Positions 36,218 to 38,252 of a stretch of 64,000 bases of DNA are shown one piece after another. Source of the DNA: Escherichia coli (GTDB lineage Bacteria > Pseudomonadota > Gammaproteobacteria > Enterobacterales > Enterobacteriaceae); NCBI RefSeq assembly GCF_030013205.1, contig NZ_CP122648.1. One strand, given 5' to 3'. The notes below the pieces were generated by a model that was given only the letters and a program-made list of their open reading frames with translations, was not told where the DNA came from and ran no database searches. Position 1 is the first letter of the stretch; each line of letters opens with the position of its first letter. The position numbers and the translations under genes are program-made.

Positions 36218-37018
36218 ATGAATACTGGATATACGCCTGTACAGGGGCGGGGCTTCGTTCGGCCTGAAAAACAGAATCTGCAAAATTTCGCTGAAATTAT
36301 TCCGGTTATTTCCGGCGTTATTGGTGGGCGTGAAACCACTATTGTTAGCGCCAGAGCGTTACATAAGGCGTTAGGTGTAGGGCGCGTTTTCCGTTCGTGG
36401 ATCAAGGGGCGCATTGAAGAATACGGGTTCACGGAAGGCGTGGATTATGAGGTTGTTGAATATTTGAGCCGACCCGATCCGGTGAGCGCAAAATCTCGCC
36501 AGCAAACCGCTCTTGAGTACATCATCACAGTGAACATGGCGAAAGAACTGGCGATGGTCGAACGTACCGAACAGGGCCGCGCCGTTCGCCAGTACTTTAT
36601 CAAATGCGAGGAGGAGCTACACAAGGTAGCGCCAGTGCGTTCCGCAGCGTTACGCCGGGAACTGAAAGCCCGTATCACCGTTGCCAGCTACTTTAAGCCA
36701 ATGTGTGCCGCGCTGGAGGCGTACCGGGCTGAACTGGGTAAAAACACGTTCCAGCACCACTACACCACGGAAGCCAATATGCTGGCGCGTATCGTGCTGG
36801 GTGGCATGACTGCAAAACAGTGGGCGCAGGCGAACGGCATCACAGGCGAACCACGCGACCACATGAGCACGTTGCAGCTTGAGCACCTTTCTTACCTTGA
36901 GCAGAGCAATATCACGCTGATTGAGTTAGGCCAGGGCTACCACCAGCGGAAAGCTGAATTAATTCGTCTTTCGCAGCGTTGGTTAGCCCGTCGCATGGAG
37001 GAAAACAGCCATGTGTAA
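36218..37018 (+). CDS. phage antirepressor-like protein (AntA/KilAC-type)
   Basis: 266-aa ORF; central region ALEYIITVNMAKELAMVERTEQGRAVRQYFIKCEEEL resembles antirepressor domains (from memory). Confidence 0.55.
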   Translation: MNTGYTPVQGRGFVRPEKQNLQNFAEIIPVISGVIGGRETTIVSARALHKALGVGRVFRSWIKGRIEEYGFTEGVDYEVVEYLSRPDPVSAKSRQQTALEYIITVNMAKELAMVERTEQGRAVRQYFIKCEEELHKVAPVRSAALRRELKARITVASYFKPMCAALEAYRAELGKNTFQHHYTTEANMLARIVLGGMTAKQWAQANGITGEPRDHMSTLQLEHLSYLEQSNITLIELGQGYHQRKAELIRLSQRWLARRMEENSHV

Positions 37019-38252
37019 CGCTCTGACCGTTACAAAAAGAGAAAGCGCCCCGTTGCCGGAGCGCCTTTGTGAACGAATAGCCTACTGCGCCATATTGCTT
37101 ACTGTCTACGAGGCAGATTATAGCGTTGTGGTCGCACAGAGTGAAGGCGCTGATCACCGTTACTACAGCACGCCAGAAATGCAGAATATTTTGCTGCAAA
37201 ATGCCGTTGGTCACGCCGTCCGGAAAGCAAAAAATTTTGCTGGTGGCGCGACTGATGCGATTTTGTCAGGTCGCCAGGTGCTGATCAATCTGATGTCTGA
37301 TTTCGTTCTGGATAAAACAAAGGCGACCGCAGAGGGTCGCCAGTGGGTATTACGGCAAATCAAACTTGAACGCATCACCAACAATGCCACATTTGCGGCT
37401 GGTGGGCAATGTGATCAGTCAGATTTGGTTCGTTCCAGGGTTTGCAACGAGAGCTTTTTCCTGCGCTCTTTAAGGAATTTCTCAAGAGCAAACGAACAAG
37501 GTGCGAATCTTTCTGATTCATGCTCTATCTTTCTGCGCCGTCTTTTCCGTGTCGGTGATAATGTTTTGGTCAATTCTTTATCGGTCATTGTGTTGTCCTG
37601 CATAGCAATGCGCCGTAGTTACTCACACCACGGCGCTGATAGTGATTATTCTGATTCTTTGGCCTTCCGGCGCTGTTCATATTTTAATTTGCGTCCACAG
37701 GCATCTAAGACCCATGCGGAAAAATTAGCACTAGGATTAGTTAATTTTTCTTGTTCAACGCTGGCATCAATCCCATCTATAAGCTCATGTGGGAATCGAA
37801 TATTTTTCTTTGCTGATTTGTTGTTTGTGTTACCGCTAGACATTGATGCACCTCACTTAAATGGACTTTATGGGCGCACACAATACAGCAAAAAAAATGA
37901 GATGTTAAGTATTGACATGTGCGCACACATGATTTTAATCTGTGCGCACAGTTTGAGTTTTGTCACTCAAATTAAGCAACGCCCCGCAGTGCTCGCAACA
38001 CATGCAGGGCGTCTAACCACCAACGATAGCAAGAGTATCGAGGTAGCTATGAGAAATCATACCACACACCCGCAAGGGCGGGACTCGCACAACCTGAATA
38101 AATATATCTGGCGTTTTATCGCCCTGAGCACCGCACAACCGCGCGTGATTCACATCGTGGCCACCAGCGAACAGGAAGCACGCCAGCAATCTCCTGATGG
38201 CTGCGTGATGGTATTCGCTGCCCGTATTCGTCAGGGGGTAAGTCATGCATAA
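37011..38252 (+). CDS. doubtful 413-codon open frame, translationally coupled to the antirepressor gene
   Basis: ATG overlaps the upstream stop (ATGTGTAA); first ~130 codons look protein-like, the rest is low-complexity and overlaps two minus-strand ORFs and a promoter/operator region. Confidence 0.25.
   Translation: MCNALTVTKRESAPLPERLCERIAYCAILLTVYEADYSVVVAQSEGADHRYYSTPEMQNILLQNAVGHAVRKAKNFAGGATDAILSGRQVLINLMSDFVLDKTKATAEGRQWVLRQIKLERITNNATFAAGGQCDQSDLVRSRVCNESFFLRSLRNFSRANEQGANLSDSCSIFLRRLFRVGDNVLVNSLSVIVLSCIAMRRSYSHHGADSDYSDSLAFRRCSYFNLRPQASKTHAEKLALGLVNFSCSTLASIPSISSCGNRIFFFADLLFVLPLDIDAPHLNGLYGRTQYSKKNEMLSIDMCAHMILICAHSLSFVTQIKQRPAVLATHAGRLTTNDSKSIEVAMRNHTTHPQGRDSHNLNKYIWRFIALSTAQPRVIHIVATSEQEARQQSPDGCVMVFAARIRQGVSHA
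37415..37603 (-). CDS. small basic hypothetical protein
   Basis: 62-aa Lys/Arg/Glu-rich ORF downstream of the YlcI-like ORF on the same strand. Confidence 0.4.
   Translation of the reverse strand: MQDNTMTDKELTKTLSPTRKRRRRKIEHESERFAPCSFALEKFLKERRKKLSLQTLERTKSD
37646..37843 (-). CDS. YlcI/YnfO-family (DUF3950-like) small protein
   Basis: 65-aa ORF with NIRFPHELIDGID...NFSAWVLDACGRKL, matching the prophage YlcI/YnfO pattern as I recall it. Confidence 0.55.
   Translation of the reverse strand: MSSGNTNNKSAKKNIRFPHELIDGIDASVEQEKLTNPSANFSAWVLDACGRKLKYEQRRKAKESE
37868..37951. promoter_or_regulatory. divergent promoter region with three GCGCACA operator-like sites
   Basis: GGGCGCACACAAT; TTGACA immediately followed by GTGCGCAC (8-bp palindrome); perfect 12-bp palindrome CTGTGCGCACAG. 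Confidence 0.6.
38049..38252 (+). CDS. small hypothetical protein (possibly Icd-like)
   Basis: 67-aa ORF MRNHTTHPQGRDSHNLNKYIWRFIALSTAQPRVIHIVATSEQEARQQ... with SD GAGG 5 nt upstream; the Icd-like assignment is a weak memory-based guess. Confidence 0.4.
   Translation: MRNHTTHPQGRDSHNLNKYIWRFIALSTAQPRVIHIVATSEQEARQQSPDGCVMVFAARIRQGVSHA

Follow-up and report, generated by a model that had tools for sequence, protein, structure and literature searches.

A long reading frame kept open across an antisense repressor operon in satellite elements of Escherichia coli, and its likeness to the eta/kil genes of phage P4

A 64,000-nucleotide (nt) stretch of Escherichia coli DNA (contig NZ_CP122648.1 of assembly GCF_030013205.1; hereafter the window) carries an island at ~34299-48400 that interrupts yifB/comM beside the ilv operon. 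On the plus strand of this island, the ORF list of the window contains an open reading frame (ORF) of 413 codons with an ATG start (37011..38252). An original prediction, made from the letters alone, had noted that this frame runs through two minus-strand ORFs and a palindromic promoter region, which the sequence confirms, and had taken it for either a shorter gene that lost its stop codon or a coincidence. We find that the long frame is neither an accident nor a broken gene and that related satellite elements keep it open; very probably it is under selection to stay open. Its 3' end is a nested gene for a Kil/Icd-like protein, and we propose, with a rough probability of 0.6, that 37011-38252 corresponds to the nested pair eta/kil in phage P4 and serves a read-through mechanism of the same kind. 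We combined profile searches, the comparison of loci fetched independently of ORF length and codon-level analyses of both strands to examine what keeps the frame open.

Results

The long ORF is joined to its neighbors at both ends. At the 5' end, GGAGG (36997-37001) lies 9 nt upstream of the long-ORF ATG (37011), which overlaps the TAA (37016-18) of the preceding antirepressor gene ant in ATGTGTAA (junction 36997..37018, plus strand), bearing out the proposed translational coupling; this junction is identical in 16 related loci. The ant gene (antA/AntB type, 36218..37018, plus strand, 266 aa) is supported by phrog_5817 (anti-repressor Ant, E 5.9e-42), by the annotation of the Prokaryotic Genome Annotation Pipeline (PGAP) and by a ratio of nonsynonymous to synonymous polymorphism (pN/pS) of 0.21. 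At the 3' end, the ATG of the next gene (38245..38610, plus strand, 121 aa; supported by sequence, ORF list and annotation) overlaps the long-ORF stop by 8 nt (ATGCATAA), extending the chain of coupled genes toward the RepA helicase gene (39095-40507).

The last 67 codons (38049..38252, plus strand) form an independently startable small gene, as had been suggested, with a GAGG and an ATG of its own and a match to NF033153 (host cell division inhibitor Icd-like, cut-off 25 bits) at E 3.5e-20. The match scores 71.8 bits for 38049-38249 and 68.9 bits within the 413-aa ORF, where it corresponds to residues 347-413. The long frame and the small gene had been regarded as alternatives; instead, the long ORF contains the small gene in the same frame, just as eta contains kil. 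P4 Kil (65 aa, E 1.6e-21) and the C-terminus of P4 Eta (199 aa, E 1.2e-20) match the same model. This link to P4 was made through the NCBIfam profile because a tblastn search of the Icd segment against the phage collection gave one match only and did not recover P4 at that sensitivity.

The open state of the frame is far from what composition would give. Of 5000 dinucleotide shuffles of 37011-38048 none was open, with stops averaging 14.5, and the two remaining plus frames contain 18 and 27 stops. A protein search returned full-length homologues of 400-447 aa (63-78% identity, 100% coverage), one of them on 270 contigs; a homologue of about 410 aa was the finding that the original prediction had named in advance as its refutation, and it occurs many times over. 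When these homologues are aligned, the middle part is replaced by unrelated sequence between elements while the frame stays open, and no homologue was found with a gene ending near codon 130.

Since a protein search returns called ORFs only, we fetched loci by the Icd segment alone: 80 loci were taken from a viral-contig collection with the 67-aa segment as the sole query and ORF length ignored. In 75 loci chosen on this segment, the Icd frame was open for a median of 272 codons 5' of the Icd ATG, and the other two plus frames were closed within 0-10 codons of it. Dereplication left 42 upstream alleles, about 30 of which had 0-1 stops in the Icd frame over 800 nt, versus 12-23 in the other plus frames. 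The promoter/operator region fell into 11 families that are mutually below 70% identity and unalignable; 10 of the 11 had 0 stops in the Icd frame versus 2-8 in each other frame, and the product of the shuffle probabilities over these families was ~1e-15 to 1e-18. Three distant loci, in which the Icd segment is ~50-60% identical and the gene order is int - AlpA - pRha or AntA - long ORF - primase, likewise had 0 stops in the long frame versus 12-34 in the other frames. Three loci of one group (L020, L062 and L063) have their long ORF in another frame, with a stop 20 nt before the Icd ATG, and L053 has a similar arrangement with the stop 139 nt before it.

The same architecture recurs beyond these loci. 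Among 1.84 billion representative proteins, the Icd-like segment stands at the extreme C-terminus in 120 of 144 proteins; at least 100 residues precede it in 97 of the 144 representatives at 50% identity, and the N-terminal extension varies from ~100 to 580 aa. At its start the long ORF is always attached to an upstream rightward gene: it is coupled to alpA or to ant, or it continues in frame from what is left of ant. In ant-less alleles the long ORF begins directly after the alpA homologue, as in P4, and its start lies exactly at a terminator hairpin of the type found at 37322-37341. Of 5426 complete E. coli genomes, 1822 contain sequence that matches parts of the region. One locus (L071) is exceptional in length: its frame, which reaches back without a stop to -1758 from the icd ATG (over 580 codons), spans two genes of the ribbon-helix-helix (RHH) type (103 aa and 59 aa) and another small gene, which looks like two immunity modules in tandem.

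On the opposite strand, the long ORF wholly covers both genes of a leftward operon. The first (37646..37843, minus strand) encodes a 65-aa, Arc-like RHH protein of the YlcI/YnfO family, a candidate immunity repressor that matches NF041551 (YlcI_YnfO_N) at E 3.5e-16, with 59 bits against a cut-off of 30, and phrog_949 at E 1.4e-27. The best Protein Data Bank matches of a profile of its alleles are Arc repressors, weak in score (E 0.008) and aligned end to end; the monomer model, an N-terminal tail followed by two helices, is of low confidence (predicted local distance difference test (pLDDT) 67). The second gene (37415..37603, minus strand) encodes 62 aa (phrog_21027, E 2e-13); in the distant loci L086 and L087, too, the long ORF encloses homologues of it.

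Repressor gene and long ORF mostly coexist in one phase. When the repressor gene was located by homology with its phase left free, it lay wobble-on-wobble with the long ORF in 66 of 71 loci; the five exceptions, L016, L020, L062, L063 and L053, are 1-nt frameshifts that still have a long ORF. This phase is common to every plausible minus-strand gene in the region, including unrelated families and the 62-aa gene, and within it a plus-strand stop can arise only from NNY-TAN or NNT-CAN dicodons of the minus strand. The length modulo 3 of the spacer between the repressor ATG and the icd ATG had also been considered as a measure of phase; it was discarded as circular, the loci having been filtered by phase beforehand, and was superseded by the homology-based phase and the independent intergenic families.

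The repressor genes use codons that steer clear of antisense stops. From codon usage, 16.2 such stops were expected over 49 distinct coding sequences of the repressor operon and 0 were observed, in a test of at-risk dicodons that is partly circular, the genes having been taken from inside the open region, and whose contexts are not phylogenetically independent. Control genes of the same island, which check the expectation, gave 82 antisense stops where 75.8 were expected. Amino acid replacements within the overlap had a mean BLOSUM62 score of +0.05 in the minus reading versus -1.0 in the plus reading. They are conservative for the repressor and not for the long ORF: the selected peptide is that of the repressor, with the plus frame merely kept open.

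The frame also passes through predicted control elements of both transcription units. A promoter-like site for the leftward repressor operon (37880..37908, minus strand, TTAACA-17-TATTGT) matches the consensus, and a putative internal rightward promoter for kil/icd and the replication operon (37912..37940, plus strand; TTGACA, 16 nt, TTTAAT) was read from the sequence, with TTGAC/A at this position in other alleles. Its -10 hexamer is flanked by two exact copies of a 10-bp palindrome, TGTGCGCACA (37918-27 and 37941-50, together 37918..37950), putative operators of which chance alone would give 0.13 copies in the window. Every immunity allele combines an RHH variant of its own with a palindrome pair of its own in the same place, flanking the -10 hexamer of a TTGAC(A) promoter. 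Also within the divergent promoter region lies an in-frame A8 run (37890-37897, read AAA AAA AA in the long ORF), which is A7-A9 in related loci. In L016 the long frame is broken by a single-A difference in this run, the only difference from its nearest relative, L005; a sequencing error could account for it, as could a knock-out mutation or a switch prone to slippage.

Three hairpins lie inside the long ORF. A terminator-like hairpin with a T-tract (37042..37067, minus strand) underlies the invariant peptide columns SAPLPERLCE, and a likely intrinsic terminator of the leftward repressor operon (37322..37341, minus strand; GGCGACC..GGTCGCC and a T-tract) underlies the invariant columns KTKAT; the stem of the latter is altered on both sides in other alleles (GGCCACC..GGTGGCC). 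The third, a conserved hairpin in the kil/icd leader (37979..38012, plus strand; leader fold z = -2.5), lies just 5' of the site where ribosomes would bind for kil/icd. The two arms of its stem vary in concert from allele to allele (GCCCCG/CGGGGC against GCCCGG/CCGGGC), and the invariant sequence TCTAACCACCAACGATA follows it. This hairpin could be a regulatory element for kil translation or for termination.

The surroundings fit a phage satellite. The rightward operon opens with an AlpA-type helix-turn-helix regulator/excisionase gene (35977..36165, plus strand), which matches phrog_2790 ('excisionase and transcriptional regulator', E 6.6e-18) and is labeled a helix-turn-helix regulator by PGAP in a genome with identical sequence. 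A sequence identical to that of the window is present in E. coli ETEC4079 as a ~14-kb island in yifB/comM, in the order int, AlpA-type helix-turn-helix gene, ant, the region described here, DUF4222, RepA helicase gene, ProQ/FinO, PerC, NUDIX and others. This gene order is the layout of a satellite of the phage-inducible chromosomal island (PICI) type, which the island's gene content and size fit. In the window the cargo (~41700-47600) comprises ProQ/FinO-family, PerC-family, NUDIX, DUF2213 and lytic transglycosylase genes. An Rfam scan of 35500-39500 at E<=1 found no int-alpA RNA (RF02996) in the window's int-alpA spacer; this RNA does occur between int and alpA in L017 (720-787), L033 (973-1041), L066 (1284-1351) and L089 (771-837).

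Annotation of the locus is inconsistent: depending on the strain, it appears as a gene of 67 aa, as one of 171 aa that overlaps ylcI, as a protein exceeding 400 aa, or as a pseudogene fragment. In the genome with identical sequence, 37293-37650 (NZ_CP122643.1 5084165-5084522) is annotated by PGAP as a pseudogene fragment, 'Icd-like, missing C-terminus'.

Discussion

Phage P4 offers a precedent for a Kil gene inside a longer frame. PMC10111431, summarizing Forti et al. (1999, J Bacteriol 181:5225), describes kil as the terminal part of the longer ORF eta and Kil as a truncated Eta. According to the same source, a constitutive promoter lies inside eta, full-length Eta comes only from the upstream late promoter, 'Eta translation prevents termination', and the late transcript reads into the downstream genes.

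We propose that the window ORF may work similarly. In the quiescent state, the Arc-like protein (37646-37843, minus strand) would act as the repressor of the internal rightward promoter, sitting on the two TGTGCGCACA operators and keeping shut a promoter that, if unrepressed, would express the 67-aa Kil/Icd-like protein and the replication genes. A helper phage would switch on an upstream promoter, presumably AlpA-activated by analogy with EcCICFT073 (PMC6092414), and the transcript would run from alpA through ant and onward. Ribosomes leaving ant would re-initiate at the overlapping ATG (37011) and translate 413 codons unbroken, across the terminators, both leftward repressor-operon genes in antisense, the operators and the kil leader, before handing over to the replication genes via the 8-nt overlap at the long-ORF stop. 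Such continuous translation would cover ~1 kb of RNA and block premature (Rho-type) termination, so that the induced transcript would override the immunity of the element itself; in addition, expression of the repressor should be disturbed by rightward transcription. Under this mechanism the frame would have to stay open, and the peptide upstream of Kil would be largely irrelevant. The proposal agrees with the AlpA-activated rightward transcription of EcCICFT073 and with the report (PMC6092414) that overexpressing AlpA, by itself, sets off replication in a Gram-negative PICI. We regard as evenly poised the stronger claim that the frame is a ribosome shield, with selection acting on openness alone across the divergent promoter/operator region and an antisense two-gene repressor operon whose amino acids and synonymous codons were shaped against antisense stops, and with a largely irrelevant peptide.

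Several observations weigh against this proposal. BLASTP against P4 Eta gave E 0.35 and aligned the Kil part only, the N-terminal 346 residues having no detectable similarity, so the homology claim rests on the Kil segment and the architecture. The sampled loci belong to related E. coli elements and are not wholly independent of one another. Segment A, the N-terminal part of the long ORF, is closed in some alleles, and two nonsense variants were seen; among close homologues 6.6 would be expected, a comparison that is underpowered. Random synonymous recoding of the two minus-strand genes of the window leaves the plus frame open with P 0.88 and 0.84, which makes the overlap cheap, so part of the open frame needs little selection. 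The internal rightward promoter was not reported by the consensus scan, because the scan demands A at position 2 of the -10 hexamer, and no rut-like (Rho utilization) C>G skew is evident in the plus-strand RNA, the region being T-rich. That the long ORF is translated, that termination depends on Rho, that the promoters act and that the repressor binds are all inferred. Finally, the composition of segment A is coding-like and near that of real genes (purine at codon position 1, 0.64; codon log-odds, +0.17), as is that of segment D in the long frame, and segment A may have a weakly constrained peptide function.

The last point speaks for a first alternative, in which the 413-aa product is a functional multi-domain protein ('Bro network / Ash family') whose upstream peptide is itself active, for example by modulating or masking Kil toxicity or by binding DNA. 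Long versions are annotated 'Icd-like' or 'ash family' in many genomes, the relatives P0232 and P0255 have precomputed matches to PF10554 (Phage_ASH), one of them weak, and PMC10111431 classes P4 eta as a Bro-network gene. Yet a Pfam scan of the 413 aa gave no match even at E<=10, PF10554 included, and a PHROG search found no family matching residues 1-134. The N-terminal extensions are as variable in length as described above and unalignable between alleles, with whole modules swapped, and plus-reading replacements over the repressor gene are non-conservative. The invariant columns in the protein-like first third coincide with minus-strand terminator hairpins and not with protein motifs. Variable sites in segment A are spread evenly over the three codon positions (34/37/38), compared with 21/27/73 in ant and 14/12/33 in icd. 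For pN/pS we limited segment A to codons 4-103 and used the other frames as controls, ungapped dN/dS (the substitution-rate counterpart) over the whole segment being contaminated by indels; the value of 0.61 is somewhat under those of the other two frames (0.93 and 0.86), a point in favor of this alternative. For comparison, ant has 0.21 in frame and ~1.9 out of frame. The original view that the first ~130 codons look protein-like therefore holds by composition and fails by evolution (flat variability, pN/pS 0.61, no family). The peptide upstream of Kil is weakly constrained at most, and we consider an active upstream peptide unlikely.

A second alternative keeps translation and replaces its purpose: ribosomes might clear the repressor from the operators, melt the operator and leader hairpins, or stabilize an antisense RNA that silences the repressor operon, rather than protect the transcript from Rho. 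The long ORF does span the leftward unit from terminator to promoter, ant-less alleles start at the terminator hairpin, and the operator and leader hairpins lie inside the frame; the lack of a clear rut-like composition would also suit such a role. Against it, the only experimentally studied relative, P4 eta, acts by preventing termination, as stated in PMC10111431. Moreover, the long ORF is retained in relatives that lack an RHH gene and rely on sense RNA immunity of the P4 type, so its function cannot depend on the antisense repressor genes. We judge such a role to be quite improbable.

The two explanations first offered, a ~130-codon gene whose stop was lost by frameshift or decay and a coincidence favored by lying antisense to real genes, retain almost no credibility: the cheapness of the overlap given the two minus-strand proteins, the annotated pseudogene fragment, and the frameshifts or stops of some alleles speak for them, but both are rejected by the frame being open in distant relatives whose other frames are full of stops and in 10 of the 11 unrelated families of the promoter/operator region, and further opposed by the shuffles, by the abundance of full-length homologues, none ending near codon 130, and by the codon choice of the repressor genes.

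If translation-dependent read-through does operate in the window ORF, it extends to a very common E. coli satellite family a means of overriding immunity so far demonstrated for P4 alone. The immunity module may be an RNA (CI/C4) or a protein repressor encoded in antisense, and the long ORF persists with either. The region would then offer a clean natural case of an open frame selected without selection on its peptide, leaving a measurable codon imprint on the genes of the opposite strand, which is relevant to the dispute about antisense overlapping genes and to the assessment of 'shadow ORFs'. Should the shield reading hold, it would describe a widespread, co-adapted antisense overlap, with matches in about one-third of complete E. 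coli genomes, that lets an activator-driven transcript override immunity by a protein repressor, and it would suggest which protein acts as the repressor in Gram-negative PICIs. The nested long ORF also explains why the locus is annotated inconsistently across strains.

Comparison with known systems

The island resembles the Gram-negative PICIs EcCICFT073 and EcCIMP1 (PMC6092414, PMC11773190) in its order of int, alpA, antirepressor, 'Ash/Icd-like' gene, DUF4222, primase/helicase and PerC-type cargo, in its size of ~14 kb and in having no virion genes. (The interval 1.395-1.445 Mb of CFT073, considered as EcCICFT073, proved to be the helper prophage at icd and not the PICI.) The PerC-like gene of a similar PICI is reported to silence LEE (locus of enterocyte effacement) expression (PMC11773190). 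The global repressor of Gram-negative PICIs was called 'unclear' (PMC6092414), and the PICI papers file such ORFs as 'Bro network / Ash family' and discuss RNA immunity only; neither PMC6092414 nor PMC11773190 describes an opposite-strand RHH gene or a conserved long frame. In the literature searched we found no description of an opposite-strand repressor operon within the ORF, of frame openness across unrelated operator regions, or of an imprint on codon choice.

The candidate repressor is comparable to the Arc/RHH repressors of P22 and to the YlcI/YnfO family of lambdoid prophages, given the NF041551 match and the end-to-end profile alignment with Arc. It differs in that the Arc match is weak, DNA binding and operators are predicted from sequence, and its gene lies wholly inside an antisense ORF.

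The immI operon of phage P1 has the order c4 RNA - icd - ant, and translation of icd is needed for transcription to reach ant. It thus shares with the window an Icd-family small protein as the first translated product of an operon, a tie between translation and read-through, and a nearby antirepressor gene. It differs in that icd precedes ant, control is by the c4 antisense RNA, and no long upstream ORF or antisense protein repressor is known to take part.

The closest parallel is P4. Both elements have a ~65-aa Kil/Icd-like gene as the in-frame 3' end of a longer ORF that starts 5' of an immunity-controlled promoter; in the window this promoter is a putative one (37912..37940), which would correspond in position to P4 PLE. 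In P4 the start codons of eta (ATGATGATG) lie across the stop of the ORF88/alpA homologue, as ATGTGTAA joins the window ORF to ant, and epsilon overlaps the eta stop by 8 nt in GTGCGTAA, as the next gene does in ATGCATAA; both lead into replication genes. In contrast, Eta has 199 aa and the window ORF 413 aa, with extensions that lack sequence similarity, and the window has an ant gene between alpA and the long ORF. The immunity modules differ as well: eta holds the sense-strand CI (C4) and seqA (isrK) immunity RNAs, which served as a positive control for Rfam, whereas the window ORF lies antisense to a protein-repressor operon and its divergent promoter/operator region. No Rfam family, C4/CI and isrK/seqA included, was matched at E<=1 in 35500-39500, and neither RNA was found in related RHH-type loci. 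The distant loci L086 and L087, which have no RHH gene and provided a further positive control, carry a sense C4 RNA inside the long ORF; in L087 this in-ORF copy (996-1083) is accompanied by an isrK match (895-971) and by a second C4/CI-type RNA (1458-1546) in the gene 3' of the long ORF. One kind of ORF thus accommodates two different immunity modules. With its precedent in P4 dating from 1999, we read the arrangement as a known mechanism, of which the variant described here is new.

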